This document shows, piece by piece, positions 1,174 to 47,790 of a stretch of 47,790 bases of DNA (positions within the stretch are counted from its first letter, which is position 1; every line of letters begins with the position of its first letter). The stretch lies in assembly GCA_016177465.1 (NCBI GenBank), contig JACOVF010000150.1:1-47790 (forward strand), read 5' to 3'. This stretch comes from Gemmatimonadota bacterium (GTDB lineage Bacteria; Gemmatimonadota; Gemmatimonadetes; Gemmatimonadales; GWC2-71-9). The notes under the pieces were generated by a model. It was given only the letters and a program-made list of their open reading frames with translations. It searched no databases and was not told where the DNA came from. Made by a program: the position numbers and the translations under genes.

Positions 1174-1592
1174 TGGGGGGCCCGTTGAAACGCCCCATCC
1201 GCGTGCTCGTGGCCAAACCGGGGCTCGACGGACACGACCGCGGCGCCAAGGTCGTGGCTGCGGCGCTGCGGGATGCCGGCATGGAGGTCATCTACACCGG
1301 GCTGCACCAGACCCCGGAGATGATCGCGCAGGCAGCCATCCAAGAGGACGTCGATGTCGTGGGCCTCTCCATTCTCTCCGGCGCCCACCTCACGCTCTTC
1401 CCGCGCGTGAAGAAGCTGCTGGACGAGGCCGGCCGGAGCGACATCCTCGTCACGGGCGGCGGGATCATCCCCCCGGAGGACATCGAAGCCCTCGAGCGGC
1501 AGGGCATCGGGAAGCTGTTCGGGCCCGGCACGCCCACCGCCGATCTCATCCGCTACATCGAAGAGTGGGCGGCCGAGCACGTCGAGGCCTGA
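1173..1592 (+). CDS. cobalamin (B12)-binding domain protein, methylmalonyl-CoA mutase C-terminal-domain type
   Basis: ATG at 1173 overlaps the previous stop. Contains the DGHDRG (DxHxxG) B12 motif plus VVGLSILSG and [10 protein letters not shown] of the B12-binding Rossmann fold. The upstream part of track ORF 153-1592 is an off-frame shadow of 61-1173. Confidence 0.85.
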
Positions 1593-1599
1593 GGCGACC

Positions 1600-9575: not shown

Positions 9576-11790
9576 CGTAGCTGAACGCGTGCTGCGTTCC
9601 GCGGTGACAGGGGGCGCTGGTATGGTTGCCACGCTCGTGCTGGCCACGGGAACCGGCGCCGAGGCGCTCGCGCAGGCGTACGGTCCGGTCCGCGAGGCGC
9701 GCCTCGCCTGGATCGGCGGCGGAATCCGGCTCGACGGCGTGCCGGACGAGCCGCTCTGGGGCACGGCCGATTCCATCACGGACTTCATCCAGCGCGACCC
9801 CGCCGAAGGGGCGCCGCCGAGCGAGCGGACCGTGGTGCGCCTCCTCGGCACTAGAGACGGCTTGTACATCGGGGTCTGGGCGTACGACCGGGAGCCCGCC
9901 ACGATCCGCCACGCCCAGCTGCGGCGGGACGCGGACTTCGAGTCGGACGACCATTTCAGCGTGATCCTCGATCCCCAGCGGGACCACCGCTCGGGATACG
10001 TCTTCGCGGTGAACCCGAACGGGGCGTTGCGGGACGCCGAAATGCTCACCTTCGAGAGCGCCAACACCGACTGGAACGGTGTGTGGGACGCCCGGGCGCG
10101 GCGCACGCCGTCCGGATGGACGGCGGAGCTGTTCCTTCCCTGGCAGACCCTGCGCTACCGTCGAGACGCGGACGTGTGGGGGGCGAACTTCCAGCGGGTG
10201 ATCCGGCGCACAAACGAGGAGGCGCTGTGGCGCGCGTGGCGCCGCACCGAAGGGCTTCTGTTCCTCGAGAAGGCCGGCCTGATCGCCGGGTTCACGGCGT
10301 TGCCGCCGCGTGGTCGCGTCGAGCTGCGTCCGTATACGACCGTCACCGCAGAGCTGCGCGACCTGAGCTACGCAGCGGACGGCAGCGACTCAATCCGTGC
10401 CCTGGCCAGCCAGTCGGGGAAGGCAGGTATCGATGCCAAGGTGGCGGTGGCGTCGACGCTCACCCTCGACCTTACCGCCAACACTGACTTCGCCCAGGTC
10501 GAAGCGGACCGCCAGGTGGTGAACCTGACCCGCTTCCCGCTTTTCTTCCCGGAGAAACGCACGTTCTTTCTCGAGTCGGGCGGGATTTTCGAGTTCGGGC
10601 AGCGGGAACGGACGCTGGTGTTCCACAGCCGGCGGATCGGGCTGGCCCCGGACGGCACCCCGATCCCACTCACCGGCGGCGCCCGGCTCACGGGACGGAG
10701 CGGCCGGGAACGGATCGGTCTGTTGGTGGTGCGGACGGGCGACCCGGAACGCGCTTTGGATGTTGTCGCGCGCGTGAAGCGCGACGTGTTGGCGCAGGGG
10801 TACGTGGGTGGGATCTTCGCGAGCCAGTCGGGGCCGGGGGTGAGCGGGATACGGCTCACGGGTGGCCTGGACCTCAATCTCCCATTCGTGGTGCGGGGGC
10901 AGAATCTGGTGCTCGCAGCGTTCGCCGCGAGTTCCCGGGACCGCGCCGGTACACCGGCCCGGGCTGCATGGCGTATGTTTCTAGACTACCCCAACGACTT
11001 GATGGACAACTTCATCGGATACACTCGGGTCGAGCGCGGCTTCGATCCGGCACTGGGGTTCGTCTCCGAGACCGGCATCGACCTCTTCCAAGGTCGGCTG
11101 CAGATCACGCCGCGGCCGCACCGATGGGGAATCCGCAAGCTGCTCTTCGAGCCGATCAGCTGGGAGCACGTGACCGATGTGGACGGCGACCTCTCCCACG
11201 CGCGCTACAGCGTCCAGCCGCTCGGCGCGCGGCTCGACAGCGGCGATGAGTTCGAATTCCAGTTCCACCGTCTATCGGACGTGCCGCCCGACACCTTCGA
11301 GATCTTCCCGGGCGATACGATCCTCCCTGGCCGCTACGACTGGACCCGCGCCGAGCTTGAGCTCTCGAGCTCGAATGCCCGCGCGGTGAGCGTCAGCGTG
11401 GGGGCCAGCGCCGGGGAGTACTATTCGGGGCACGCGACGGAAGTCGAAGCCGAGCTGACGGTGCGGACGGCGCGGTATCTCCTCACCAACCTGGAACTGT
11501 CCCAGCAGGACGTCCGGCTCCCCTCGGGGAGCTTTGTGGCGCGCACGGCACGGCTGCGGATCGATCTCGCCGCCTCGCCGCGGCTCAACACGACGGTGTT
11601 CCTCCAGGGCGACAACGAGTCCAACCGGCTCACGCTGAACGCGCGGCTGCACTGGATCCCGTCGCCCGGGAGCGACGCCTACCTCGTGTGGAACAGCGCC
11701 TGGCCCACGGGCCTGCCGAACGGCATCCCGTGGCGCCAGCCGCAGCGCGGGGCTTTGGTCGGCAAGCTGGTCTACTACTTCCGGGTATAA
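9565..11790 (+). CDS. CBM9-like / DUF5916 domain protein (secreted or outer-membrane)
   Basis: Signal peptide ending ALAQA. LDGVPDEPLWG..ITDFIQRDPAEGAPPSERT..DGLYIGVWAYD..RRDADFESDDHFSVILDPQRDHRSGYVFAVNPNG matches the CBM9/DUF5916 pattern. Confidence 0.8.
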   Translation: MHRSVAERVLRSAVTGGAGMVATLVLATGTGAEALAQAYGPVREARLAWIGGGIRLDGVPDEPLWGTADSITDFIQRDPAEGAPPSERTVVRLLGTRDGLYIGVWAYDREPATIRHAQLRRDADFESDDHFSVILDPQRDHRSGYVFAVNPNGALRDAEMLTFESANTDWNGVWDARARRTPSGWTAELFLPWQTLRYRRDADVWGANFQRVIRRTNEEALWRAWRRTEGLLFLEKAGLIAGFTALPPRGRVELRPYTTVTAELRDLSYAADGSDSIRALASQSGKAGIDAKVAVASTLTLDLTANTDFAQVEADRQVVNLTRFPLFFPEKRTFFLESGGIFEFGQRERTLVFHSRRIGLAPDGTPIPLTGGARLTGRSGRERIGLLVVRTGDPERALDVVARVKRDVLAQGYVGGIFASQSGPGVSGIRLTGGLDLNLPFVVRGQNLVLAAFAASSRDRAGTPARAAWRMFLDYPNDLMDNFIGYTRVERGFDPALGFVSETGIDLFQGRLQITPRPHRWGIRKLLFEPISWEHVTDVDGDLSHARYSVQPLGARLDSGDEFEFQFHRLSDVPPDTFEIFPGDTILPGRYDWTRAELELSSSNARAVSVSVGASAGEYYSGHATEVEAELTVRTARYLLTNLELSQQDVRLPSGSFVARTARLRIDLAASPRLNTTVFLQGDNESNRLTLNARLHWIPSPGSDAYLVWNSAWPTGLPNGIPWRQPQRGALVGKLVYYFRV

Positions 11791-15168: not shown

Positions 15169-15190
15169 GGAGCACGGACTCCCTCCCGTG

Positions 15191-15217
15191 GTTACCGGGC
15201 GGTGCTACGGGGTTAAC
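15191..15217. repeat. degenerate third REP copy
   Basis: GTTACCGGG-CGGTG-CTACGGGGTTAAC has the same loop and outer arms as the 15138-15168 hairpin, but the stem has decayed. Confidence 0.55.
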
Positions 15218-15237
15218 GAGAGCGTAGGCAGGCCTGG

Positions 15238-15243
15238 TATATT
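15238..15243 (+). promoter_or_regulatory. -10-like box TATATT, 7 nt upstream of the ACAD ATG (leaderless-type geometry)
   Basis: TATATT-ccctccc-ATG with no Shine-Dalgarno. The nearest -35-like sequence, TTAACG, lies in the degenerate REP with a long 19-nt spacer. Confidence 0.35.
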
Positions 15244-15250
15244 CCCTCCC

Positions 15251-16471
15251 ATGCACGACACCCTCTACTTCACCGAGCATCACCACCAGGTCCGCGATAT
15301 GGTGCGGGACTTCGCGCAGAACGTCGTGAAGCCCTCCGCCCGCACCTACGACCAGGAAAGCAGGTTCCCCTGGGACAACGTCAAGCAGATGGCGGACCTC
15401 GGGCTGTTCGGGATCGCCTGGCCAGAGGCGCTGGGTGGGGCCGGGATGGACTATCTCGCTTACGTCATCGCGGTCCACGAGCTGGCCAAGGTCGACGCAA
15501 GCCACGCCATCACCGTCAGCGCCCACACCACCCTCGGCACCTCGCCGATCGTGGACTTCGGGACCGAGGAGCAGAAGCACCGCTTCGTCCCACTGCTGGC
15601 GACGGGAAAGGTGCTGGGCGGGTTCGGGCTGACGGAGGCGGGGGCCGGGTCGGATGCGGGGGGCACCGCCACGGTGGCGGTGGACAGGGGCGATCACTAC
15701 GTCCTGAACGGCTCCAAGATCTTTATCACGCACGCAGGCGTGGGGGAGATCTTCCTCGTCACCGCCCGCACCGATCCCACCGCCAAGAAGACGCGTGGCA
15801 TCACGGCGTTCATCGTCACGAAGGACACGTGCGACCTGGAAGAAGCGCAGCGGGTCGGCATCGGCCACGACCCCGATCTCCCCAAGTGCCCCGGCGTGTT
15901 CGCCGGAAAGAAGGAAGAGAAACTCGGCTGGCGGGCGTCGGATACGCGGGAACTGATCTTCCAGGACGCGATCGTTCCGAAGGAGAACGTCCTCGGCCCG
16001 ACCAACAATGGCTTCCGCCAGTTCCTGCACACGCTGGACGGCGGTCGCATCGGCGTGGGCGCACTGGCGCTCGGGATCGCCGAGGGGGCGCTGGAAGAGT
16101 GCCTGCAGTACACGTCCACCCGCAAGCAGTTCGGCCGGCCGATCGCGAACTTTCAGGGGGTGCATTTCGCGCTCGCCGACATGGCGACGGAGATCGAGGC
16201 GGCGAAGCACCTCGTTTACCACGCGGCCTGGCTCAAGCAGCACGGCCTTCCGTTCAAAAAGGAGGCGGCGATGGCCAAGCTCTACGCCTCCGAGCTGTGC
16301 ATGCGCGCCACGATCAAGGCCGTTCAGCTACACGGCGGCTACGGCTACACCACCGAGTACCCGGTCGAGCGGATGATGCGGGACGCCAAGATCTGCGAGA
16401 TCGGGGAAGGAACGAGCGAGATCCAGCGGATCGTGATCGCCCGGCAGCTGCTGGGGGGGCTGATCGACTAG
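15251..16471 (+). CDS. acyl-CoA dehydrogenase (short/branched-chain type)
   Basis: Start at [15 protein letters not shown] motifs [23 protein letters not shown] and [35 protein letters not shown]. Track start 15188 would read through the REP copy. Confidence 0.92.
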
Positions 16472-36260: not shown

Positions 36261-37022
36261 ATGGCCGCCATGCCGGAGGGCGAGCAGGAGCTGTCCCGTC
36301 GCCCCAGCGTCATCGCGCACGAGGTCGCCAACCCCCTCGCTGCCGCGCGGGCGCTGCTCGAGTTGTGCACCAGATCCCTGCGTGATGCTGGTGGCCTGGA
36401 CCCCGCGCTGCGCGGGGAGCTCCTGGAGGATCTGCTCCACGCGCGCGAGGGGATCGACCGGGCCGTCGAGTATCTGCGCTCGGTCCAGGACCGCTCCCGC
36501 GGCGGCCTCGGCATGGTCGAGCGGTTCGACGCGGTGCGGGTCGTGCGCTCCTCGGTCACCCTGGAGCAGCCGTACGCGCGCGAACGGGGTGTGGGGCTGA
36601 CGCTCGAGGCCGCGATCGACTCGGCCTACTTGTTCGGCGAGACCAACGCCCTGTTCCAGGTGCTGACGAATCTCCTCCATAACGCCGCGGACGCCTCGCG
36701 CGGTCGCGGGGGCCCGATCGTGGTGCGGGTGGACCAGGGTGACGGGGCGCTCCGGCTGGCCGTGGCCGACCGCGGCGTCGGCATCCCTCCCGAGGACCTC
36801 GAGCGGATCTTCGAGCGTGGGTTCACGACGAAGGGCTTCGGTTCGGGCACGGGCACTGGGCTGACGGTCGTGCGCGACATCGTCGCCAACAAGTTCGGCG
36901 GCACGATCCACGTGCGGTCGACGGTCGGCGAGGGGACGGAGTTCACGCTGACCTTTCCCCTCCCGCCCCAACGCCCGAAAGCGACGGCTGAGGCTCAAGG
37001 GGGTCAGCCGCTCCAGGTGTAG
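36261..37022 (+). CDS. histidine kinase, HisKA plus HATPase_c only (no sensor or TM domain)
   Basis: H-box SVIAHEVANPL, N-box NLLHNAADAS, G1 DRGVGIP and G2 GSGTGTGL. The antisense track ORF 36105-36998 is a shadow. Start 36261 is preferred over 36165 because the terminator occupies 36134-36161. Confidence 0.82.
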   Translation: MAAMPEGEQELSRRPSVIAHEVANPLAAARALLELCTRSLRDAGGLDPALRGELLEDLLHAREGIDRAVEYLRSVQDRSRGGLGMVERFDAVRVVRSSVTLEQPYARERGVGLTLEAAIDSAYLFGETNALFQVLTNLLHNAADASRGRGGPIVVRVDQGDGALRLAVADRGVGIPPEDLERIFERGFTTKGFGSGTGTGLTVVRDIVANKFGGTIHVRSTVGEGTEFTLTFPLPPQRPKATAEAQGGQPLQV

Positions 37023-37867
37023 AACCCCTTTCCCGTCTTCTTTCCGAGGTCGCCCTTCGCCACCTTGTCGCGCAGGATCCTGGGCGGCGCGTAGTGGGCC
37101 GAGCCGAGAGTCTGGTGCAGGTACTCGGCGATCGCGAGGCGCACGTCGAGCCCCACGAGATCCGTCAGCTTGAGCGGCCCCATCGGGTGGTTGTAGCCCA
37201 GCTCCATCGCCTTGTCGATGTCCTCGGCCGACGCGACGCCCTGCTCGAGCATCCGCATTGCCTCGAGGCCCAGCACCACCCCGAGCCGGCTCGAGGCGAA
37301 GCCGGGCGAGTCCTTCACCACGATCGGCTCCTTGCCGAGCCTCCTGGCAAACGCGACCGCCCGGTCCACCGTCCCCCGCTCGGTGCGCGCGTGGGTGACG
37401 ACCTCGAGCAGTCTCATCAGGTGCACCGGATTGAAGAAGTGCAGCCCGAGGCAGCGGCTTGGGTCCGTCAACGCGCCGGCGATCTCGCTCACCGACAGGG
37501 ACGAGGTGTTGGTGGCGAGCAGGGCGACAGCGGGCGCCCCCCGCTCGACCGCGGCGAAGAGCCGCTGCTTCACCGCCAGATTCTCGACGATGGCCTCGAT
37601 CACCACGTCGGCCCGGGCGATCGCGGCGCCGAGATCCGGCTCGGTGCGCATGCGTCCCCGGATCGCCGCGGCATCGGCTGCGGTGAGCTTGCCGCGCTTG
37701 ACGCCGCTTGCGAGGAGGGCGTCGATCTTGCCCTGTGCCTGCTCGAGCGCGGCGACGTGGCTATCGGTCAGGGTGACGGAGCAGCTGGCGAGCGCCGCCA
37801 CGTAGGCGATGCCGTGGCCCATCGTGCCTGCGCCGACGATGGCTACCCGAAGCGGCGAGTCGGTCAC
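37004..37867 (-). CDS. 3-hydroxyacyl-CoA (3-hydroxybutyryl/3-hydroxyadipyl-CoA) dehydrogenase
   Basis: Rossmann motif VAIVGAGTMGHGIA and the C-terminal HBD-family pattern GPLKLTDLVGLD. Confidence 0.92.
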   Translation of the reverse strand: MTDSPLRVAIVGAGTMGHGIAYVAALASCSVTLTDSHVAALEQAQGKIDALLASGVKRGKLTAADAAAIRGRMRTEPDLGAAIARADVVIEAIVENLAVKQRLFAAVERGAPAVALLATNTSSLSVSEIAGALTDPSRCLGLHFFNPVHLMRLLEVVTHARTERGTVDRAVAFARRLGKEPIVVKDSPGFASSRLGVVLGLEAMRMLEQGVASAEDIDKAMELGYNHPMGPLKLTDLVGLDVRLAIAEYLHQTLGSAHYAPPRILRDKVAKGDLGKKTGKGFYTWSG

Positions 37868-38562
37868 TGGCTGTTAGAGTCGACCACACGGCGGCCGATG
37901 TCGGGGAGGTTGGTGCAGATCCCGTCCACGCCGATGGACAGAAAGTGGCGCATCTCGTCGGCACGGTCCACGGTCCAGACGAACAACCGGCCGCCCGCTT
38001 GGTGCACCGCGGTCACCAGATCGGCGTCCACGACCGTGCGTTCCTGCCACAGGTCGCGCGCGGCGGCGTCGTCGAGCACCGCTGTGGGACGGAACAGGTA
38101 CGATGCGCTCAGGACGCCGCAGCGGAGGCCGGGGCGCTTGCTCACGAGCCGGCGGACGATACGGTGGTCGAAGCTGTGCACCGCGTAGCCCGCTGGGTTG
38201 GGGCCTTGGTCGAGGACGTTGCACAGCCGCTCGTCGAACTGTGGGGCGAGCGACTTCACCTCGACAAAGACCTTGAGAGTCTTCTCGATGACGGCGAGTG
38301 CCTCCGCGAGCGTGGGGACCGGCTCGCCGTTCTCGAGCCGGAAGCCCGCAACCTGCTTCGCGGTGCAGTGCGCGATGTGGTGGGTCCCGTCCAGCATCTC
38401 GTCGTGGTGCACGACCAGCGCCCCGTCGGCCGTGGCGTGGATGTCCAGCTCCACGGCGTCAGCGCCGGCGGGACCGGCGGCGCGGAAGGCGGCTAGGCTG
38501 TTCTCCACCTCGTAGCCCGACGCGCCGCGGTGCGCGATCACGAGCGCGCGAGGGAGCGTCAC
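37864..38562 (-). CDS. glycerophosphodiester phosphodiesterase family protein
   Basis: VIAHRGASGYEVENSLAAF and VELDIHATADGALVVHHD are GDPD motifs. 4-nt overlaps on both sides. Confidence 0.88.
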   Translation of the reverse strand: MTLPRALVIAHRGASGYEVENSLAAFRAAGPAGADAVELDIHATADGALVVHHDEMLDGTHHIAHCTAKQVAGFRLENGEPVPTLAEALAVIEKTLKVFVEVKSLAPQFDERLCNVLDQGPNPAGYAVHSFDHRIVRRLVSKRPGLRCGVLSASYLFRPTAVLDDAAARDLWQERTVVDADLVTAVHQAGGRLFVWTVDRADEMRHFLSIGVDGICTNLPDIGRRVVDSNSQ

Positions 38563-39680
38563 TGCAGCAGGCTATCCGCTTTCTTCGGCTCGATCCAGTC
38601 GGGCTCTTTCTCGATTTCGTGCACCAGCTGGATGTCCTCCGGCCGCGGCATCACCGTTGCGAGGTAGGCCGGGTGCTGCTCGGGCGAAACCGGCCGGCCG
38701 TCGGTGGTCCAATGCTGGTGCGCGTAGATCCCGATCTTCCGGTTGAACTTCAGGTCGGGCACCCGGAGCTGCCGGTCGCGGTCCGGGATGAACATATTGA
38801 GCCGCTCGATCAACTTCACGATCTCCTGCCGGTACAGCCCGCGCGACAACTCGTTGAGGTGGGCCTTGTCCGGCTCGTCCTGGTGCTCGCGCTCGTCGTA
38901 GCGGCCCTTCAGCCCCCACACGTAGGCCCAGTGCGCCGAGGAGGAGTTGTCGGTGCCGAACAGGTCGAACGCCGTGGGGATCCACTTGCAGAAAAAGCGC
39001 TGGATCACCTCGGGTGGCATCTTCCCGGCCTTCACGATCCGCAACAGCCCGTTGTTCCCGGTGCCGAGGTGGAACGACTCCTCCTTCAGCATCGGGCCCA
39101 TGGATCGCGACAGAGGGTCGAAAGCCGAATACGACAGCATCTTCAGCTGGAACTTGCCGTCGCGGTCGATGAACTGGGTATAGGTGAAGAAGTCGAGCCA
39201 GTTGTCGACGATCTCGTTGAACGAGCCGAGCAGGCGCTCGCCCTCGTCGGCGCGGCGCTCGAGCAGCTTCGCCGCCTCGCGCTTGCCCTCGTCGCCGAAG
39301 TGCTGGCACAGCAGGTAGGACATCTGCCAGCCGTGGCGCATCTCCTCGGTCATCACCCGCTGCAGCGACAGGAGGTCGTAGTCCGAGGGCGCGTGGTGCA
39401 GGAGGTTGCGCTGCTGCTCCACCGAGGCGAACTCGGTGTCGCCCTGGTAGACGATGAGGTTCAGGAGCGCGTCCCGAATCCGTTGGTCGGGGATGTGCAT
39501 CACGGTGGGCCACTTGCGCTGGCCCTTGTAATGGCCGAACTCGATGTAGTCGACCTCTTTGTCCCCGAATTTCGCGTCGAACTGGAAATCGCGGAGCGCC
39601 TCCTGGGTGAGGCCGATCGAATCCTGCCAGTAGCGGAAATAGTCGATCCAGTCATCGAAGTTGTGCAGCTTCCTGACCAT
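38559..39680 (-). CDS. BoxB-like diiron oxygenase (PaaA/BoxB family; benzoyl-CoA 2,3-epoxidase subunit B-like)
   Basis: Start is ATG at 39680 with AGGAG 6 nt upstream. QGDTEFASVEQQR, diiron motifs EEMRHGWQ and KEESFHLGTG, FIDRDGKFQL, and a C-terminal FNRKIGIYAHQHWTTDGRPVS resembling BoxB. About 100 aa shorter than canonical BoxB. Confidence 0.75.
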   Translation of the reverse strand: MVRKLHNFDDWIDYFRYWQDSIGLTQEALRDFQFDAKFGDKEVDYIEFGHYKGQRKWPTVMHIPDQRIRDALLNLIVYQGDTEFASVEQQRNLLHHAPSDYDLLSLQRVMTEEMRHGWQMSYLLCQHFGDEGKREAAKLLERRADEGERLLGSFNEIVDNWLDFFTYTQFIDRDGKFQLKMLSYSAFDPLSRSMGPMLKEESFHLGTGNNGLLRIVKAGKMPPEVIQRFFCKWIPTAFDLFGTDNSSSAHWAYVWGLKGRYDEREHQDEPDKAHLNELSRGLYRQEIVKLIERLNMFIPDRDRQLRVPDLKFNRKIGIYAHQHWTTDGRPVSPEQHPAYLATVMPRPEDIQLVHEIEKEPDWIEPKKADSLLQ

Positions 39681-40432
39681 CAGCGGCTCCTGGTGGAAAG
39701 GGACTGGCTGATGCGCTCGCGCGCCTCGGGCGTGGCGAACAGCTCGTACTGGTGCGCGATCTCGAGGTCGAGCATCGCCTCGAGCGCCCGCGTTTCGCTG
39801 ACGTACACCGCTTCCTTGGCCCGCCGCACGGCGAGCGACGGCTGGGCGGCCCATTGGAGGGCGAGCGCGCGCGCTTCCGCGGCGAGCCGGTCGTGGGGCA
39901 CTACCCGGTCGAACAGGCCGAGCGCCAGCGCTTCGGTGGCCGGGACCATCCGCGCGCTCCACACGAGCTCCAGCGCGCGGGAGGTGCCGGTGAGGCGGGG
40001 GAGGAAGTAGCTCCCGCCCCAGTCGGGGGCGAGGCCGAGCTTGTGGAACACCTGGCCGATGGACGCCTGCTCCGAGGCCATGCGATAGTCGCAGGCGAGC
40101 GCGAGGTTCGCGCCGCCGCCCGCGGCCGCGCCGTTCACGGCGGCGAGGATGGGCTTCGGAGCGGCGCGGAGCATGACGGCGATCTCCTTGCCCGCCGCCA
40201 TGAGCGCCGGACCGTCCTGCTCGAGGACGTTGAGGTCGGCCCCGGCGCAGAACGCTCGCCCCGCGCCCGTGAGGATAATGACCCGCACGCGGTCGTCGGC
40301 GGCGAACGCGCGTAGCGCGTCGATCAGCTCACGGCAGAAGTGGCGGTCGAACGCGTTCAGCTTGTGGGGGCGGTTGAGGGTCACCGTCCCGATGCCGTCC
40401 GCGAGCTCGGCCAGTACGAGCCCCGGGGTCAC
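39680..40432 (-). CDS. enoyl-CoA hydratase/isomerase (PaaG-like)
   Basis: GTG at 40432 overlaps the thiolase stop (GTGA). Contains TLNRPHKLNAF, LTGAGRAFCAGADL and AAGGGANLALACD. Confidence 0.88.
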   Translation of the reverse strand: MTPGLVLAELADGIGTVTLNRPHKLNAFDRHFCRELIDALRAFAADDRVRVIILTGAGRAFCAGADLNVLEQDGPALMAAGKEIAVMLRAAPKPILAAVNGAAAGGGANLALACDYRMASEQASIGQVFHKLGLAPDWGGSYFLPRLTGTSRALELVWSARMVPATEALALGLFDRVVPHDRLAAEARALALQWAAQPSLAVRRAKEAVYVSETRALEAMLDLEIAHQYELFATPEARERISQSLSTRSR

Positions 40433-41631
40433 GCGCGCTCCACGATCATGGCTATGCCTTGGCCGACCCCGATGCACATGGTGGCCAAACCGTATCGAGA
40501 ATTCGTACGGCGTAAGCCGTAGAGCAGAGTCGTCAGGATCTTGGCGCCGGTGCAGCCGAGCGGGTGCCCCAGCGCGATCCCGCCGCCGTAGATGTTCACG
40601 CGGGCCGGGTCGAGCTCGAGCTCTCGAATACACGCGATCACCTGCGCCGCGAACGCCTCGTTCAGCTCGACGAGATCGATCTGGTCGATCGTCAACCCGG
40701 CGCGCCGCAGCGCCTTCTGGGTGGCCGGAATCGGCCCGAGCCCCATGCAGCTCGGATCCACGCCCGCGACGGCAGTCGCCACGATACGCGCGAGCGGTTT
40801 CAATCCGCCCACGGAGTCCTTTAGGATCCGCCCATCCGCCGATCCGCCCGTGACGAGCAATGCCGCCGCCCCATCGTTGATCCCGCTCGAGCTCGCCGCC
40901 GTCACCGTCCCATCCTTCCTGAACGCCGGCTTGAGCTTCGCCACGGCCTCGAGCGTCGTGGCCGGGCGGGGATACTCGTCCTTCGTGAACAGCGAGCCAT
41001 CGGGGAGGGGGACCGGCACCGTCTCGTCGCCGAAGACGCAATCCTGCAGCGCCTGCTCCGCCCGCCGCTGGCTCTCCACGGCGAACGCGTCCTGTTCAGC
41101 GCGGCTGATCCCGTAGCGCGCCGCCACGACCTCGGCGGTCTCGCCCAGGGCGATCGTCCATTCCTTCTTCAGGCGGGGATTCGTGAACCGCCAGCCGACG
41201 GTGGTGTCGGCGACCTCCGGGGCCTTGCGGCTCCACGGCTCGCCCGACTTGAGCAACACGTAGGGCGCGCGGGTCATGGTCTCCACGCCGCCGGCGATGA
41301 ACACCTCGCCCTCGCCCGCTTTGATCGCCTGCGCCGCGCTCGCCACCGCCTGGAGCCCCGAGCCGCACAGCCGGTTCACCGTCTGGCCCGGCACCTCGAC
41401 TGGCAGGCCGGCGAGGAGCAGGGCCATGCGGGCGACGTTGCGGTTGTCCTCGCCTGCCTGATTGGCGCAGCCGAGGATCACGTCGTCGATGGTCGCGGGG
41501 TCGATCCCCGAACGCTCGACGACGGCCTTGATCGGCACCGCGGCGAGATCGTCAGGGCGAACGTTCGCCAGCGACCCGCCATGCTTGCCGACGGGGGTGC
41601 GAAGCGCGGTGGCGATGAAGGCGTCGTTCAC
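40429..41631 (-). CDS. acetyl-CoA C-acyltransferase / 3-oxoadipyl-CoA thiolase (PcaF/PaaJ-like)
   Basis: The N-terminus MNDAFIATALRTPVGKHGGSLANVRPDDLAAVPIKAVV matches PcaF/PaaJ-type thiolases. Active-site regions NRLCGSG and CIGVGQG. Confidence 0.92.
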   Translation of the reverse strand: MNDAFIATALRTPVGKHGGSLANVRPDDLAAVPIKAVVERSGIDPATIDDVILGCANQAGEDNRNVARMALLLAGLPVEVPGQTVNRLCGSGLQAVASAAQAIKAGEGEVFIAGGVETMTRAPYVLLKSGEPWSRKAPEVADTTVGWRFTNPRLKKEWTIALGETAEVVAARYGISRAEQDAFAVESQRRAEQALQDCVFGDETVPVPLPDGSLFTKDEYPRPATTLEAVAKLKPAFRKDGTVTAASSSGINDGAAALLVTGGSADGRILKDSVGGLKPLARIVATAVAGVDPSCMGLGPIPATQKALRRAGLTIDQIDLVELNEAFAAQVIACIRELELDPARVNIYGGGIALGHPLGCTGAKILTTLLYGLRRTNSRYGLATMCIGVGQGIAMIVERA

Positions 41632-43067
41632 AATCCGACCCAGACCGTCTTCACCTCGGTGTAGCCGTCGAGCGCCTCTTTCCCCAGGTCCCGCCCGAAG
41701 CCGGAAGCCTTGAATCCGCCGAACGGGGCGCCGGAGTCGTAGAAGTTGTACGCATTGATCCAGACGGTCCCGGCGCGAATCGCGCGTGCGGCGCGGTGGG
41801 CCTTCTGGATGTCCTTCGTCCAGATCCCCGCGGCCAGGCCGTACATCGACTGATTCGCGAGCTTCACCCCTTGCTCGAAGTCGTCGAACGACAGCACCGC
41901 GAGCACGGGGCCGAAAATCTCCTCGCGTGCGATCGTCATCTCGGGGCTCACCTGGTCGAATACCGTCGCCTCGACGAAGTAGCCCTTGCCGTTGGGGGGG
42001 GGGCTGACGGCCTTACCACCCGCCACGAGCGCCGCCCCCTCCGCGACGCCTTTCTTGATATAGCCCAGCACCGTTTCCTGCTGCCGCTTCGAGACGAGCG
42101 CGCCCAGACGGGTATTCTTATCGAGGGGGTCGCCGGGGGTGAGCTTCTTCGCTCCCTCGGCGAGCTGCTCCACCACCTGATCGTGCACCGAGCGCTCGAC
42201 CAGCAGCCGCGACCCCGCCGCGCACACCTCACCCTTGCCGTAGAAGATCCCGGTCTGCGCGCCACGCACCGCGGCTTTGAGATCGGCGTCGGCGAAGATG
42301 ATGTTCGGGCTCTTGCCGCCCAGCTCGAGGGTAACGCGCTTGTTGGTCTCGGCGGCCATCCGCATGATCTGGCGGCCGACCTCGGTGGACCCCGTGAAGG
42401 AGATCTTATCCACGTCGGGATGCCGCACCAACGCCGCGCCGGCGGTGGATCCGCCGCCCGTCACCACGTTGAACGCGCCCGGCGGGAACCCGGCCTCGAG
42501 CACGAGCTCCGCGAAAGCCAGCGCGGTGAGCGGCGTCTCGGAGGCGGGCTTCAGGACGACCGTGCAGCCCGCCGCCAGGGCGGGGGCGAACTTCCAGCTG
42601 GCGATATTGAGCGGGAAGTTCCACGGCACGATGGCGCCGACCACACCGATCGGCTCGCGCAGCGTGTAGACCAAGAACGGGCCGTCCACGGGCAGCGTAT
42701 CGCCCGTGATCTTGTCGGCCCACCCCGCATAGTAGCGCAGGGTGTTGACCGTCATCGTGATCTCGATCTTCGACTCGAACAGCGTCTTGCCGTTGTGCGC
42801 CGTCTCGAGCCGGGCGATTTCCTCCAACCGGCCCTCGAGCAGATCGGCCGCCTTGGCCAGGAGCCGGCCGCGCTTCCGGGCCGACAGATTCCGCCAGGCG
42901 TCCGACTCGAAGCAGGTTCGCGCCGCGGCGACGGCGTTGTCGACGTCCCCCGCGTCGCCGGCGGCGACCTCGGCGATCACTTCCTCGGTGGCGGGATTCA
43001 CCACCGGGAAGCGCTTCCCCGAAGCCGCCGGCCGCCACTCGTTATTGATGAACAGGTCGGTGTTCAC
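41628..43067 (-). CDS. NAD(P)-dependent aldehyde dehydrogenase
   Basis: ALDH pattern LFINNEW..., FTGSTEVG, ELGGKSP and EEIFGPV. GTG 43067 avoids the 62-nt overlap with the upstream crotonase that track start 43136 would create. Confidence 0.88.
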   Translation of the reverse strand: MNTDLFINNEWRPAASGKRFPVVNPATEEVIAEVAAGDAGDVDNAVAAARTCFESDAWRNLSARKRGRLLAKAADLLEGRLEEIARLETAHNGKTLFESKIEITMTVNTLRYYAGWADKITGDTLPVDGPFLVYTLREPIGVVGAIVPWNFPLNIASWKFAPALAAGCTVVLKPASETPLTALAFAELVLEAGFPPGAFNVVTGGGSTAGAALVRHPDVDKISFTGSTEVGRQIMRMAAETNKRVTLELGGKSPNIIFADADLKAAVRGAQTGIFYGKGEVCAAGSRLLVERSVHDQVVEQLAEGAKKLTPGDPLDKNTRLGALVSKRQQETVLGYIKKGVAEGAALVAGGKAVSPPPNGKGYFVEATVFDQVSPEMTIAREEIFGPVLAVLSFDDFEQGVKLANQSMYGLAAGIWTKDIQKAHRAARAIRAGTVWINAYNFYDSGAPFGGFKASGFGRDLGKEALDGYTEVKTVWVGL

Positions 43068-43074
43068 CGGGTCT

Positions 43075-43875
43075 TCACTTTCCTTTGAACTCCGCCACCC
43101 GCTTCTCGTTGTAGGCGGCGATGCCTTCCTTCGCATCCTCGCTCTGGAACAGCTGCTGCTGCAGCTCGCGCTCGATGGCGAGCGCCGACTCGAAGGGGAC
43201 TTCGGCGCCCGACTGCACCGAGCGCTTGATGAGCCCCACGGCCTTCGACGCCTTGTGCGGCGGACAGAACTGCTTCGCGTACAGCAGGGCCTGCTCCCAG
43301 TAGCCGTCGGCGGGGAAGACTTCGTTCACGAGCCCCAGCTCCTTGGCGCGCTCGAAGGAAAAGGTCTCGCCTTTGACCATCATCTCAATCGCGAGCGCCT
43401 TGCCCACGAGCCGCGCCAGCCGCTGGGTGCCGCCGGTGCCCGGCAGCACGCCGAGGTTCACCTCGGGGAGGCCGATCTTGCCGGCGTTCTCCTTGGCGAG
43501 CCGGAGGTCGCACGCCATCGCGATCTCGAGCCCGCCGCCCACGCAGTGCCCGTTGAGCGCGGCGATCGTGAGCTTCGGGGTGTGCTCGAGGCGGTTCAGG
43601 GTCTCGTTGGCGTGGAGGCAGAAGAAATACTTGAAGCGGGGCGTGACCCTGTTCAGCATCCCGATGTTGGCGCCGGCGGAGAAGAACTTGTCGCCGTGGC
43701 CGCGTAGCAGGATCACGTGGACGTCGTCGTCGAAACGCGCCTTGAGGATCGCCTCGTCGAGCTCCCGCATCATCTCGTAGGTGTAGGTATTGGCGGGCGG
43801 ATCGTTCAGCTCGATGATCGCCAGCCCGTCCTCGACAGTGTAATCGACGAGGGTCTTCACCTGTGTGGCCGTCAT
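43075..43875 (-). CDS. enoyl-CoA hydratase/isomerase family protein
   Basis: Crotonase motifs GHGDKFFSAGANI and CVGGGLEIAMACDLR. The start abuts the TetR stop. Confidence 0.9.
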   Translation of the reverse strand: MTATQVKTLVDYTVEDGLAIIELNDPPANTYTYEMMRELDEAILKARFDDDVHVILLRGHGDKFFSAGANIGMLNRVTPRFKYFFCLHANETLNRLEHTPKLTIAALNGHCVGGGLEIAMACDLRLAKENAGKIGLPEVNLGVLPGTGGTQRLARLVGKALAIEMMVKGETFSFERAKELGLVNEVFPADGYWEQALLYAKQFCPPHKASKAVGLIKRSVQSGAEVPFESALAIERELQQQLFQSEDAKEGIAAYNEKRVAEFKGK

Positions 43876-44469
43876 TTAGCCTCCGTGTACCGTGGAACGG
43901 GCCTCGGCGAACCCGCCGAGGAAGATGCGAGCAATGAGGTCCGCGAGACGCTGGGGATGGATCTCGCCCGCGGGGTCGTACCAGTTGTACATCCAGTTCA
44001 TCATGCCGAACAGCCCGTACGCCGCGGCGCTCCGGTCCACCGGTGTCTCGTCCGGGGCGACGCCCTGCAGTAGTCCCTCGAGGAGATCGACGTAGCGCCG
44101 CTTGATCGCGTTGACCCGCCGCTTGAGGTCGCCCGTGAGGGAGTTGGCCTCGTGGGAGAGGACTTTCATTTCCGCCATGTGCGCGGCGAAAAACGCCACG
44201 TGGTGGTGGATAAATGCCTGCACCCGCTCGGCGGGATCCGCGCTCCGCGCGACCGCCTGCGTGGCGCCCTCGAGGACGCTCGCGAAACAGCGCTCCTGGA
44301 TGAGGTAGAGCAGCTCCTCTTTGCCCTTGACGTAGTAGTACATCCCGGCGAGCGACATCCCGCTCGCCGCCGCCAGGTCGCGCATCGTGGTGGAGTGATA
44401 GCCCTGCTGGGCGAAGACCCGGGCGGCGTGGCCCAGGAGCGAGGCGAAGCGTTCGTCGTATGGGCGCAT
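43876..44469 (-). CDS. TetR/AcrR family transcriptional regulator
   Basis: HTH TTMRDLAAASGMSLAGMYYYVKGKEEL. The likely start is ATG 44469 (MRPYDERF), with an operator-like palindrome immediately upstream. Confidence 0.88.
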   Translation of the reverse strand: MRPYDERFASLLGHAARVFAQQGYHSTTMRDLAAASGMSLAGMYYYVKGKEELLYLIQERCFASVLEGATQAVARSADPAERVQAFIHHHVAFFAAHMAEMKVLSHEANSLTGDLKRRVNAIKRRYVDLLEGLLQGVAPDETPVDRSAAAYGLFGMMNWMYNWYDPAGEIHPQRLADLIARIFLGGFAEARSTVHGG

Positions 44470-44470
44470 G

Positions 44471-44488
44471 TTCGAACGTTTGTTCGAA
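44471..44488. promoter_or_regulatory. perfect palindrome TTCGAAC-GTTT-GTTCGAA, candidate TetR operator
   Basis: 7-bp arms with a 4-nt spacer. It starts 2 nt upstream of the TetR start codon and lies downstream of the promoter-like element. Confidence 0.55.
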
Positions 44489-44493
44489 AATGG

Positions 44494-44522
44494 AAAGTAT
44501 CTGCAGGGTGTTGGGCAGGCAA
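44494..44522 (-). promoter_or_regulatory. promoter candidate TTGCCT-17-TACTTT for the TetR/box-like operon
   Basis: On the minus strand the -35 is at 44522-44517 and the -10-like box at 44499-44494. The palindrome would sit at about +1 to +25. Confidence 0.35.
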
Positions 44523-44546
44523 GGGCCGGCGAAGTCATTCCCCGCG

Positions 44547-44792
44547 CTACTGCTTCGAGCGCACCAATCGGGCGATATAGCCGATCGTGTTCAAGTGATC
44601 TACACCGGCCTCGTGCGCCTGGATCTCGATTCCGAATCGCTCTTCCAGGAACGCGACGAGCTTCAGGGTGGCGATCGAATCGAGAATGCCCCCGGTGATA
44701 AGCGGGGTCGATTCGGTGAGCTCCCCCGCCGCGGTGCCCGGCAGGAATTCGCCCAGGATGTAGTCCTTCACGGTCGCTTCGATTCCTTGCAT
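44547..44792 (-). CDS. acyl/peptidyl carrier protein, DltC-like
   Basis: 81 aa. Phosphopantetheine-site context GGILDSIATLKLVAFLEERFGIEI. GGAGGGGGAG lies upstream of the ATG. Confidence 0.85.
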   Translation of the reverse strand: MQGIEATVKDYILGEFLPGTAAGELTESTPLITGGILDSIATLKLVAFLEERFGIEIQAHEAGVDHLNTIGYIARLVRSKQ

Positions 44793-44906
44793 GTTCGTGT
44801 CTCCCCCTCCTGTTCGACCACTGCGGGATAGGCCAGCGCCTCGCCTTGATGCACCGCCGTTTCGATTCCGTGCATGATCCGTTCTCCGAGCCGGTGGTGG
44901 GCCGCG

Positions 44907-47627
44907 TCAGGGGTCGCCCGGCACGGCCCGGACGGGGAGCGGCACGCCGAACGCGTCCGGTTCCAGGCGGAGCGCCGCATAGAGCCGGTCTGCGATGAGC
45001 CGATGCCCTGCGGCGTTCGGGTGGCGGTCCCAGGCGGCCACTTGCAGCGTGGCAAGGTCGTGCCCGGCGTAAACATCAGAGAGATCGGCCATCCGGAATC
45101 CCGCCCCGTGAGCGAGGGCCGTGAGGGCGGTGACTTCTTCGAGCGAGGTCGCGTCGCCCGGCATGGGGAGGTACATCCACACCGGGGTGATGCCGCGTTC
45201 GCGGCTGAGCGCCGCGATGCGGCCGTAGGCCCAGGCCAGGATCCGGGTCTCGTGCGGCTTGAGTCGTCGCTCCGCTTCCAGCAGTGGGGTCGCCGAGTCC
45301 ACCCCTGCGGCCTGCACCGTCTCGCGCAGGAAGTCGTACGGCACGTGCACGCCCAGCCGGACAATCAGCGCCAACCGCCGAATCGTTTCGGCGGACTCGG
45401 CGGGGCCGGCGACCAGGAAGACCGTGTTCGGTCGGAAGGTGAACACCTTGCGCTCGAGCAGCATCACCTGCTGTAGCGGCGTATAGTCCCCGACGGCGAA
45501 GTTGAGGATCTCATACCGCGCGGCACCGCCGCGACTCTCCCCGTTCAGCCGGTCCTCGAGTAGCCATTCGAAGCTCTGCCCGTCTCCCACGCCCCAACCC
45601 ATGGTATAGGACGATCCGAGTAGCGCCACGCGGTAGGTCGCCGGTGGGGGCAGCCGCTCGTAGTCGCGATCCCGCATGCCCCAGCGATTGGTCCGGAACG
45701 GTGCGCCGAAGAACATGACGCCCTCAAGGGGCGGGAGCTCTTTCATGAGGAAGTCCCCGGTCGGCCGGGTGATCCGCTCCTGGTCGGTCAAGTCCTGCCG
45801 CGGCCGCTGCGCGTAGATCTCCCAGAGTCGGGAGTTCAACGGGTTGGCGCCGACGATGCTCTCGTAGTAGCCCCGCCGCAGGAGGGCCGCATCCCGTTTG
45901 TTGAGCTCCGTCAGCCGCACGTCGCGGAGCACTTCCCGGACGTGCGGGCCGAACTGCGAGGACAGCTCCGGCCTCCCCACGACGTAGAACGCCACGAGGA
46001 CGCCGGCCGTGAGGCCGGCCGTTCGACCGAACGGTTGCCGCGCGATCGCCGGGCCGAGCGCCGCGGCGCCAGCGCGGACCGCTGCGGTGGTCGCCAGGAC
46101 CGCCGCCGCGAGGACGGCGACGATGGCGAGGAGTTCCGGCGCGTTCATCCGGACGCCGCCCCACAACACGAACCACTCGGTCAGGCTAGGACTGGTCCAC
46201 AGCGACCAGAGCACGCAGATCACGGCGAACGTGCCCACGGTGCGAAGGGCGAACACCGCGCTCTGGCGCGTCGACCACACTCGCTTGCCGAGTGTGCGGG
46301 TACGCCCGTGCCGCACCTCGTACAACGAATTGGCGACGAGCAGGACAGCCAGGAGCGACCAGAAAAGCACGTCGGTCCAGGCGAGGCGCACCGAGCCCAG
46401 CAGCCAGAACCACTGGTACGAGTGCAGGATCCAGGTCGCGCAGAATACGAGCAGCGTCGAGAGCACGAGCGCGGTCGTGTCTCCGAGCCGGCGTAGCTGG
46501 AAGTAGCTCGGGTACTGGAAGACCTTCATCATGAAGTCCTTCCAGTAGATGTTGATGCGGCGCCAGAAGTCCGAGAAGCTCGACGCCAGGAAGAAGAACC
46601 GGTGCGTCTCGGGCAGCCGGAACCCGAACAAGTGCAGCAACCCCGCGATCATGTGGAACTGGCCGGAGACTCGCAGGTAGAGCAGGAAATTCGCGACCAG
46701 GTAGCGCGCCAAATCTCCGACCGTGGCGATGTCGCCGGGCGAGAGCGTGACGTACTGGTAGACGAAGCGATACAGCACGAGGTGCGTCGTGCCCAGGAGC
46801 ATCCACCGCACCCCGCGCTGGTAGATGCGGTAGGGGTCCTCGTCGTAGTAGGTGCGGCGGAACGTGGCGAAATCCACCACCGGGAACAGCGGGAACGCTA
46901 CGTTGGGCAGCAAGAAAAAGTAGGACAGGCTCCGGAAGACGTTTACCGGCTCCCGGGTGTGCCGGAGGTCGTACAGATAGACAATCAGCCGGAACATGAA
47001 CATGGAACCCAGGATCGGCCAGATTGCTGCCGACCATGGGGCCGGCAGGCGCCCCGATCGCATGAGGGCGAGGCTCACCCCTACCACCGCGACCAATCCC
47101 ACACGGACCGCGAACGGCGCGGGGGCGTGGCACAGACCCACCAACACCAGGCCGACGGCGAGCAGCCAGGCGCCGTTCGTCCAGCCGAACACCAACCCAA
47201 TGCCAGCCAGCGAGAGAACGAGAAAGAAGGGCAGGCGGAAGGGAGTCGGAAGCAAGTGGTGGACTACGAAGCCACAAGCGGCGAGTGGTACCACCGTCTT
47301 GTAGAACGCGGGGCTCTCGATGCGGAACTCGCGGATCACCAGCACAAGCAGCCCGAGCTGTATTGCGAGGGCCGCGAACCGGCCGAGGCTACGCAGCTCC
47401 TCGGCCGACGGCACGAGCCGCGCTCCGACGAGCAAGCGCGGGAGCACCCCGCCGCTCGCCATGACGGCGCCTCCGGCGAGTGCCAGCAACAGCTGGCCCC
47501 GTCCGAAACCCGGTGTGGCGCCGGGGAGCAGGGTATCCAAGGCGACGGCGACGACGACGACTCCCGCGCCGATCACAACCAACAGCCGCGACAGCAGCCG
47601 CTCCCGGAGCATGCGGCTAAGGACCAT
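44907..47627 (-). CDS. MBOAT (DltB/AlgI-like) membrane O-acyltransferase fused to a C-terminal SGNH/DltD-like domain
   Basis: MBOAT signatures [20 protein letters not shown] and the conserved His in [11 protein letters not shown], with many TM spans. The C-terminal roughly 350 aa carry [11 protein letters not shown] (block I-like) and [15 protein letters not shown] (DxxH block V-like). Confidence 0.85.
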
Positions 47628-47790
47628 CGCTGCGGCCCGTCCCGCCCCCGGTCTGCAGTCCGAGCCAGCCGGCGATGATGTTGCGCATCATCTCGGACGT
47701 GCCCGAATAGATGGTGCTCCCCACGGCGTCGCGCAGCGCCCGCTCCACTTCGTATTCCACGGCATAGCCGTACCCGCCGTGGACCTGCAC
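47617..47790 (-). CDS. acyl-CoA dehydrogenase family protein, C-terminal fragment (gene continues beyond the window)
   Basis: The reverse strand reads [57 protein letters not shown], then TAG at 47619-47617. It overlaps the MBOAT start by 11 nt. Not in the ORF track because it is under 60 aa. Confidence 0.75.

Follow-up and report, generated by a model that had tools for sequence, protein, structure and literature searches.

A carrier-protein-linked MBOAT–SGNH fusion at a Gemmatimonadota locus and its predicted proline-derived acylation cassette

The stretch of DNA analysed here, referred to as the window, comprises 47,790 nt of the contig JACOVF010000150.1 of a Gemmatimonadota bacterium. Three genes of interest lie at the end of this window, all on the minus strand. 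The first is the 3' end of a gene of the acyl-CoA dehydrogenase (ACAD) family. The second encodes a 906-aa fusion protein, in which a membrane domain with a membrane-bound O-acyltransferase (MBOAT) fold is followed by an SGNH-fold domain, and the third encodes a carrier protein (Table 1). The stop codon of the ACAD gene overlaps the ATG of the fusion open reading frame (ORF) by 11 nt, while a gap of 114 nt separates this ORF from the carrier gene. A preliminary description of this DNA, made from its letters, had placed all of these elements correctly, and the MBOAT, SGNH and GILDSIATL motifs quoted in it are present by translation. Folds, conserved residues, gene linkage, the proline code and the nearest characterised relatives were computed. 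On this basis, it is fairly probable that three members of a conserved four-gene cassette are present in the window. In this cassette, a transmembrane acyltransferase with its MBOAT and SGNH parts in a single chain would be coupled to a proline module resembling a type II nonribosomal peptide synthetase (NRPS).

Table 1. Features of the window, with the cassette genes and their parts first and the other genes last
Feature	Position	Strand	Basis or remark
ACAD-family gene, 3' end (final 57 codons and stop)	47617-47790	-	stop-free up to the window edge
906-aa MBOAT–SGNH fusion ORF	44907-47627	-	ORF call, AlphaFold2, Foldseek
MBOAT-fold membrane core, about aa 100-490	46158-47330	-	fold match and invariant residues
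H402 codon, LHSYQW	46422-46424	-	putative MBOAT catalytic residue
Two extra transmembrane helices and flexible linker with GYYE	45828-46142	-	AlphaFold2 model, conservation
GYYE motif, aa 586-589	45861-45872	-	linker of the fusion
SGNH-fold domain, about aa 640-895	44943-45710	-	Foldseek, Lipase_GDSL_2
Ser673 codon, LGSSYTMG	45609-45611	-	SGNH block I
Asp867/His869, DRHPNAAGH	45021-45029	-	SGNH block V
81-aa carrier protein	44547-44792	-	ORF, phosphopantetheine site
Ser39 codon, GILDSIATL	44676-44678	-	phosphopantetheine attachment
TetR regulator and phenylacetate/β-oxidation-type operon	37007-44538	-	start 8 nt past the carrier gene
Second ACAD of the window (catabolic-type)	15188-16468		
baeRF family 10 (bacterial archaeo-eukaryotic release-factor-like) protein	61-1170	+	

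The fusion protein was modelled with AlphaFold2 using 40 homologues, and the model reached a predicted local distance difference test score (pLDDT) of 82.9 and a predicted template modelling (pTM) score of 0.79. When the membrane part was compared with the PDB by Foldseek, the DltB structures 8jem and 6bug came first (E 3e-7 to 9e-7, TM-score on the target 0.55). The matches that follow, HHAT, PORCN and DGAT1, are likewise of the MBOAT fold. In the alignment, H402, N359 and D353 are invariant (40 of 40 sequences); the latter two lie within FWRRIN, 43-49 residues upstream of H402, which itself lies within LHSYQW. Among the 93 full-length relatives, HxYQW is kept in 92 and WRR[IV]N in 79. N359 and H402 are the putative catalytic pair of the MBOAT core. 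By motif resemblance, rather than by residue-level superposition, H402 and N359 would correspond to His336 and His289 of DltB. The name ‘DltB (MBOAT superfamily)’ given to relatives of the fusion comes only from the COG-based annotation of JGI.

Similarly, the C-terminal domain was compared by Foldseek, and its matches were TesA, LAE5, EstL5 and acetyl-xylan esterases, with TM-scores on the target of 0.64-0.78. S673, D867 and H869 are invariant in the 40-sequence alignment, and N709 of block III is at least 90% conserved. Block V is of the form DxH instead of DxxH, and DxHPN is found in 85 of the 93 full-length relatives. The Pfam model Lipase_GDSL_2 aligns with aa 670-877 at 31.0 bits, below its gathering score of 32.9; for many relatives, a PF13472 match is available as a precomputed annotation. 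Judged from the model, the fold of the C-terminal domain is SGNH of a generic kind. DltD, AlgX and PatB are absent from its best 50 fold matches, and a specific affinity with any of these three was rejected as unsupported. The SGNH fold foreseen in the preliminary description was thus found, together with its Ser, Asp and His residues; the label ‘DltD-type’ holds at the level of the superfamily and not beyond it. As the six residues H402, N359, D353, S673, D867 and H869 are invariant, the quoted motifs are beyond chance.

Two extra transmembrane helices, aa 496-529 and 533-551, are present between the MBOAT core and the SGNH domain. They are followed by a linker with low pLDDT at aa 584-599. 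This linker contains the GYYE motif, which all of the 93 full-length relatives share and of which Y587, Y588 and E589 are invariant. In bacterial MBOATs other than DltB, two extra helices are known to carry a tyrosine motif, FxYxxF, which serves the SGNH protein as an ‘acyl shuttle’, while in the Dlt system the shuttle role is played by DltX (PMC12148441). Since the layout of the fusion is the same as that of the PatA-type MBOATs, with a variant motif, Y587 or Y588 of GYYE is a candidate acyl-shuttle tyrosine. No conserved gene for a DltX-like microprotein was found near the fusion when the ORFs of 84 loci were clustered. The N-terminus of the fusion and its loop 441-452 are rich in Lys and Arg. 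This positive-inside pattern is consistent with a periplasmic SGNH domain, as had been expected, and would put the linker and the SGNH domain, as well as the N-terminus of the MBOAT core, on the outer side of the membrane.

The fusion is widespread. Its homologues give more than 3400 matches in a collection clustered at 90% identity; the family forms 1094 clusters at 50% identity (E<=1e-30), and the best 150 of these are all full length. It occurs in at least 542 species-representative genomes of about 10 phyla, mostly diderm. The hosts include Gemmatimonadota, Chloroflexota, Acidobacteriota, Alpha-, Beta- and Gammaproteobacteria, Planctomycetota and Verrucomicrobiota, along with Bacteroidota/Rhodothermota, Calditrichota, Binatia and Armatimonadota. 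Several Mesorhizobium species and Pseudothauera rhizosphaerae are cultured hosts, and Accumulibacter is represented by metagenome-assembled genomes (MAGs). The closest relatives of the fusion in the window, with 54-59% identity, are from Gemmatimonadota. Tandem or nearby paralogues of the fusion were seen at seven loci (L004, L024, L041, L043, L047, L058 and L075).

All-against-all clustering of the ORFs of the 84 loci left only four widely conserved families, namely the fusion, the 81-aa carrier, an AMP-binding (adenylation) enzyme of about 520 aa and an ACAD of about 380 aa. Co-occurrence was counted in the 48 loci that have at least 4 kb on each side of the fusion. The carrier gene is present in 44 of them, within 9 kb of the fusion and usually directly adjacent to it; the adenylation enzyme and the ACAD are found in 39 each, and all three partners in 36. 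The linkage of the fusion with carrier and ACAD, which the preliminary description had drawn from one locus, is kept in most of these loci. At least four gene orders of the cassette were observed, and because the linkage survives this much rearrangement, the cassette is likely to be one functional unit.

The order seen in the window, in which the ACAD, the fusion and the carrier follow one another, also occurs at L002, L007, L043, L082 and L083, where the ACAD gene is immediately preceded by the adenylation gene. The counterpart of the ‘missing DltA’ thus most likely lies just beyond base 47790 in the window's genome as well. It had been proposed that the ACAD stands in the cassette instead of an adenylating enzyme; this does not hold, as the adenylation enzyme accompanies the fusion at 39 of the 48 loci. 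One Logan contig extends 637 nt beyond base 47790, which is too short for the expected adenylation gene.

The 57 codons of the ACAD in the window were sufficient for a match to Pfam Acyl-CoA_dh_1 (E 1.3e-12). Over this tail, the identity to cassette ACADs at their C-termini is 78-89%, as against 58% to the second, catabolic-type ACAD of the window. When homologues of the tail were searched, only short fragments of at most 89% identity and no near-identical full-length copy were obtained. The ACAD of the window is a probable orthologue of the prolyl-carrier-protein dehydrogenase of the cassette. Another explanation would assign the ACAD and the carrier to the genes that follow them, i.e. to fatty-acid or phenylacetate catabolism, and would make their adjacency to a membrane protein coincidental. 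Directly downstream and on the same strand, a TetR regulator is indeed followed by genes for an enoyl-CoA hydratase, an aldehyde dehydrogenase, a thiolase, a second hydratase-like ORF, a PaaA/PaaC-like protein and a 3-hydroxyacyl-CoA dehydrogenase. Yet this TetR-led operon has no linkage to the cassette in other genomes, and none of its genes is conserved beside the fusion at other loci. With the identity of the tail to the cassette ACADs and the synteny of ACAD, fusion and carrier with the five loci named above, the catabolic explanation is scarcely credible.

The adenylation enzyme of the relatives is a stand-alone protein that passes TIGR01733 (383 bits), and its best single-domain PDB match is PltF (6o6e), the L-proline–carrier ligase of pyoluteorin synthesis. 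The segment of the specificity pocket scores 112 bits with PltF, 82 with PigI and 52 with DltA, while the whole enzyme reaches 256-261 bits with the DltA models, whose cut-offs are 476-560. To read the specificity code, 58 adenylation-family ORFs, 54 of them of the cassette type, were aligned to GrsA-PheA at the Stachelhaus positions. In the alignment, the GrsA-PheA reference gave its canonical code DAWTIAAICK. The 10-residue code DLLYLALVCK was read in 45 of the 54 cassette enzymes. Neither DLLYLALVCK nor DLFYLALVCK was met with as a string in the literature searched, and hence the code was compared directly with PltF in the alignment. PltF reads DLLYLALVC and is identical to the cassette code at all nine pocket positions. 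The proline code is that of the enzymes of relatives, the window's own adenylation gene being expected outside the window.

In the Chloroflexota loci L013, L017, L020, L028 and L035, a second adenylation enzyme was observed, 43-46% identical, whose code, where readable, is again proline-type, DLLYLALVCK or DLFYLALVCK. A second, divergent carrier (about 30% identical) is present in L017, L020 and L035, and also in L016.

The nearest relatives of the cassette ACAD also belong to proline chemistry. A full-length relative (L002:8848-9984) matches AnaB best (4irn, 390 bits), the prolyl-ACP (acyl carrier protein) dehydrogenase of anatoxin-a synthesis, followed by PigA (5zw0). With the NCBIfam models, it scores 456 bits for PigA and 453 bits for RedW, both below the equivalog cut-offs (500 and 650, respectively). 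Furthermore, a flavin-dependent halogenase is present in 13 of 86 loci (e.g. L020:15961-17337 and L086:21355-22671), the hosts being mainly Chloroflexota with some Gemmatimonadales, Binatia and Chthoniobacterales. Its best match is Bmp2 (246 bits); Mpy16 and PltA come next among the pyrrolyl-carrier halogenases that have been characterised. The substrate of each of the three is a pyrrolyl-S-carrier, and this kinship favours full oxidation to pyrrole-2-carboxyl, at least in the halogenase lineages. From code and relatives, the donor of the cassette is inferred to be a proline-derived acyl group. The substrate, which the preliminary description had called unknown, is thus narrowed to such a group.

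In a Pirellulales MAG (L088:12040-14959), the genes for the β and α subunits of the electron transfer flavoprotein (ETF) come directly after the cassette ACAD gene. This arrangement suggests that the ACAD of that locus may pass its electrons to ETF rather than to oxygen.

The carrier itself is closer to the carriers of pyrrole pathways than to DltC. The Pfam model PP-binding gives 20.2 bits against a gathering score of 20.8. The best sequence matches in the PDB are the carrier domain of Bmp1 (6cxt_A, 41 bits), the peptidyl carrier protein 2my5 (40), PltL (28) and DltC (26), and the DltC models remain far below their cut-offs (NF003464, 27.2 bits against 68; TIGR01688, 18.8 against 52). The term ‘DltC-like’ of the preliminary description is therefore valid for the superfamily; within it, the carrier is Bmp1/PltL-like.

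A further model matches the carrier and raises a different possibility, namely that the carrier belongs to ornithine-lipid synthesis as the ACP for OlsHI and that the fusion acylates a membrane lipid. NCBIfam NF052616, a model of 83 positions, is named ‘ornithine lipid biosynthesis acyl carrier protein’. The similarity is very high, the carrier of the window scoring 125.8 bits and that of L002 (L002:12751-12996) 130.2 against a cut-off of 130; the window's carrier is, however, below this cut-off. The name traces to loci such as L087, where a carrier of the same family stands beside OlsH, OlsG and OlsI. On this 10.9-Mb contig, the carrier gene (10001-10252) is downstream of and co-directional with a Phosphodiest gene, and convergent with the genes for GH3/OlsH, a methyltransferase and the α/β-hydrolase OlsI; no fusion is present there. 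Homologues of GH3/OlsH and OlsI are absent from the window and from all 84 loci with the fusion. At 44 of the 48 well-flanked loci, the carrier is next to the fusion. The papers on OlsHI do not mention an ACP. A role of this locus in ornithine-lipid synthesis is thus very improbable, and was rejected on the absence of OlsH and OlsI and the silence of those papers. NF052616 would nevertheless name some cassette carriers automatically as ornithine-lipid ACPs, which is probably a naming problem.

The surroundings of the cassette give some indication of its acceptor. In Mesorhizobium muleiense (L072), it lies inside a lower-GC (57% GC) cluster of the exopolysaccharide (EPS) type, with genes for a Wzx-like flippase, several GT4/GT1 glycosyltransferases, a pyruvyl transferase, a nitroreductase-like protein and a Bac_transf priming enzyme. 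This GC content is below that usual for Mesorhizobium, and the region suggests a horizontally acquired polysaccharide island. Genes for Wzz and Wzy, for AlgX-like SGNH proteins, or for a carbamoyltransferase or sulfotransferase were seen in the flanks of L085, L086 and L088. At other loci, genes of the phosphodiesterase/sulfatase type flank the cassette. As no acceptor-specific gene is universally linked to it, the cassette behaves as a portable tailoring module. From these neighbourhoods, the acceptor is most likely a surface polysaccharide or exopolysaccharide.

Taken together, these results allow a sequence of steps to be proposed. For each step, the chemistry is our reading of the computed results, and so are the pyrrole oxidation state, the use of GYYE as a shuttle, the acceptor and the topology. 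The stand-alone adenylation enzyme, expected upstream of the ACAD gene and outside the window, would activate L-proline and load it on Ser39 of the carrier. The ACAD-family flavoenzyme would then oxidise the prolyl-S-carrier, most likely to pyrrole-2-carboxyl-S-carrier or, alternatively, to the 2-electron product 1-pyrroline-5-carboxyl. In some lineages, the Bmp2-like halogenase would further modify the carrier-bound product. The loaded carrier would dock at the cytoplasmic face of the MBOAT domain, where His402 would catalyse the transfer of the acyl group onto a tyrosine of GYYE at the outer face. Ser673 of the fused SGNH domain would accept the acyl group from this tyrosine and esterify an extracytoplasmic acceptor, most likely a surface polysaccharide or exopolysaccharide. 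The earlier suggestion of a single-polypeptide MBOAT–SGNH transferase, with a carrier-bound donor that is modified by the ACAD, is in line with the computed evidence. The fuller statement goes a step further: in bacteria of about 10 phyla, an exopolysaccharide or envelope polymer would bear pyrrole-2-carbonyl esters, which some lineages halogenate and whose acyl group is made from proline on the carrier and moved by an MBOAT–Tyr-shuttle–SGNH enzyme. This statement is offered tentatively, as a possibility that falls somewhat short of being probable.

Several results weigh against the reading of the locus as a proline-derived acylation cassette. The Pfam model MBOAT (PF03062) does not match the 906-aa protein even at E<=10, and scans of this protein with the NCBIfam and Pfam models for MBOAT, DltB and AlgI gave nothing. 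Similarly, sequence searches of the PDB returned no MBOAT or DltB with the 40-sequence profile and nothing with the signature region alone. As these Pfam and PDB sequence searches were negative, the MBOAT call rests on the fold. The tyrosine motif of the fusion, GYYExL, is internal, whereas the published FxYxxF is C-terminal. The nearest structures of the SGNH domain are hydrolases and thioesterases, with no known transferases among them. AnaB, the closest solved relative of the ACAD, stops at the 2-electron product, and so the pyrrole state is uncertain outside the halogenase loci. Two loci, L085 (10001-14501) and L053, have the fusion, the carrier and the adenylation enzyme, with no ACAD within 10 kb. 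No polysaccharide genes were found within 45 kb downstream of the cassette in the window. Lastly, the window itself has no adenylation gene and only the 57 ACAD codons, and its close relative L001:9678-9977, on a contig shared with L011, has an ACAD remnant of about 61 aa and no adenylation gene within 10 kb.

As judged from its genes, L001 is an example of decay or rewiring of the cassette, and since it keeps only an ACAD remnant, the cassette of the window could be incomplete as well. It is nonetheless likely, from the gene orders of relatives, that the window's own cassette is complete. The fusion and carrier genes of L001 are surrounded by Phosphodiest and sulfatase genes.

The two loci devoid of an ACAD may transfer plain, unoxidised proline, and they lead to the question of a true Dlt-type system. 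In such a system, the carrier would be loaded with D-alanine or another unmodified amino acid, an anionic polymer of the envelope would be aminoacylated so that the surface charge is changed, and the ACAD would be incidental. The overall logic of adenylation enzyme, carrier, MBOAT and SGNH is the same, DltB is the best fold match, the models of DltA and DltC are matched weakly, and unoxidised prolyl transfer may occur at L085 and L053. On the other hand, the code equals that of PltF for L-proline, and the pocket segment scores less than half as many bits with DltA as with PltF. The ACAD is co-conserved at 39 of the 48 loci, and in the window its gene and that of the fusion overlap; the carrier attains 27 bits against the DltC cut-off of 68; and a separate DltD or DltX is lacking. 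A Dlt-type system proper is hence unlikely.

The kinship of the SGNH domain, in turn, bears on a device for releasing small molecules. Here, the MBOAT would move the pyrrolyl or halopyrrolyl group outward and the SGNH domain would hydrolyse it, so that free pyrrole-2-carboxylate or halopyrroles would serve as signals or antimicrobials and no polymer would be acylated. The closest SGNH structures are thioesterases and esterases such as TesA, the proline-to-pyrrole module and the Bmp2-like halogenase stem from small-molecule pathways with release by a hydrolase, and the window is devoid of polysaccharide genes. However, all characterised bacterial MBOAT–SGNH pairs acylate a polymer (PMC12148441). 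The cassette is located inside clusters of the EPS or O-antigen type in Mesorhizobium and several MAGs, and a soluble thioesterase would suffice for release with no need for a membrane machine. Release of a small molecule is thus rather unlikely.

The transfer of a proline-derived group to a surface polymer, as preferred here, can be compared with known systems. The Dlt system (DltA, DltC, DltB, DltX and DltD), which D-alanylates the teichoic acids of Gram-positive bacteria, is alike in that an adenylation enzyme charges a carrier with an amino acid, the MBOAT moves the acyl group of the phosphopantetheine thioester to the other side of the membrane and the SGNH protein completes the transfer; DltB is, moreover, the best structural match of the membrane domain of the fusion. 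Unlike in Dlt, the MBOAT and SGNH domains are here in one polypeptide, and there is no DltX, which the built-in GYYE may replace. The amino acid of the cassette is predicted to be L-proline instead of D-alanine. The ACAD and sometimes a halogenase would modify the tethered acyl group, and the hosts belong mostly to diderm phyla.

The enzymes of the donor side resemble those of the type II NRPS modules (PltF/PltL/PltE, RedM/O/W, PigI/G/A, and Bmp4/1/3 with Bmp2) and of AnaC/AnaD/AnaB. The code is that of PltF, the ACAD is AnaB/PigA-like, the carrier is Bmp1/PltL-like and the halogenase is Bmp2-like. Those modules have so far been known from natural-product pathways of the cytoplasm only and feed assembly lines or soluble acyltransferases, whereas the only conserved downstream partner of the cassette is the membrane MBOAT–SGNH protein, often in polysaccharide clusters. 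CloN2 and CloN7 are known to place pyrrolyl groups on the noviose sugar of the aminocoumarins.

On the acceptor side, PatA/PatB, AlgI/AlgJ/AlgX and WssH/WssI share the MBOAT core, the two extra transmembrane helices, a tyrosine motif (at the outer face, as predicted for GYYE) and an SGNH protein acting on a polymer; they differ in being separate proteins with a C-terminal FxYxxF and an acyl-CoA (acetyl-CoA) donor (PMC12148441). Such MBOAT–SGNH systems other than Dlt are stated to lack a carrier protein (PMC12148441). The cassette, by contrast, has both proteins in one chain, GYYE as the motif, and a dedicated carrier linked to them genetically. The OatA-type AT3–SGNH fusions are also single polypeptides with an acyl-translocating membrane domain, a C-terminal extracytoplasmic SGNH domain and a tyrosine intermediate (PMC12148441). 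Their membrane domain is, however, AT3 and their donor acetyl-CoA, in place of the MBOAT fold and the predicted carrier thioester of the present fusion.

According to reviews, the acylation of bacterial polymers is carried out by an MBOAT with a separate SGNH protein or by an AT3–SGNH fusion, and a carrier-bound donor is peculiar to Dlt (PMC12148441). The fusion family would depart from both rules, as an MBOAT is fused to SGNH and a carrier donor is used outside Dlt. A search of the literature on MBOATs with prolyl, pyrrole or carrier protein, and on Gram-negative Dlt-like systems, found no description of the cassette. If the reading is true, the surface of these cells would bear a modification of a new class. 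The pathway would be the first outside Dlt in which an MBOAT depends on a carrier protein, and it would for the first time connect type II NRPS chemistry with the tailoring of envelope polymers. If the chemistry is right, an aromatic and sometimes halogenated ester would be present on the surface polymers of soil, groundwater, wastewater (Accumulibacter) and rhizobial bacteria. Such an ester could affect the properties of biofilms, recognition by phages and predators, symbiosis and the material properties of EPS. The fused enzyme would also be suitable as a single-protein model of the relay from MBOAT through tyrosine to SGNH.

Some minor observations concern the rest of the window and its source. 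No polysaccharide cluster, halogenase or GH3 gene was found across the window, and its remaining genes have housekeeping and degradative functions. A possible second cassette at 61-5975, where the ORFs are of similar sizes, was rejected, as its genes encode the baeRF-like protein, a carboxyltransferase and a subtilase of 937 aa. A look-up of the exact fusion protein found no record. The sequencing-run look-up gave a groundwater metagenome as the source material and no RNA data for the locus. In Logan contigs from the groundwater runs X2 and X3, a skip of 715 nt was seen at 46113-46829, within the MBOAT-coding part. As one side of the joint has only 20 nt, this skip is probably an artefact of assembly rather than a true deletion variant.

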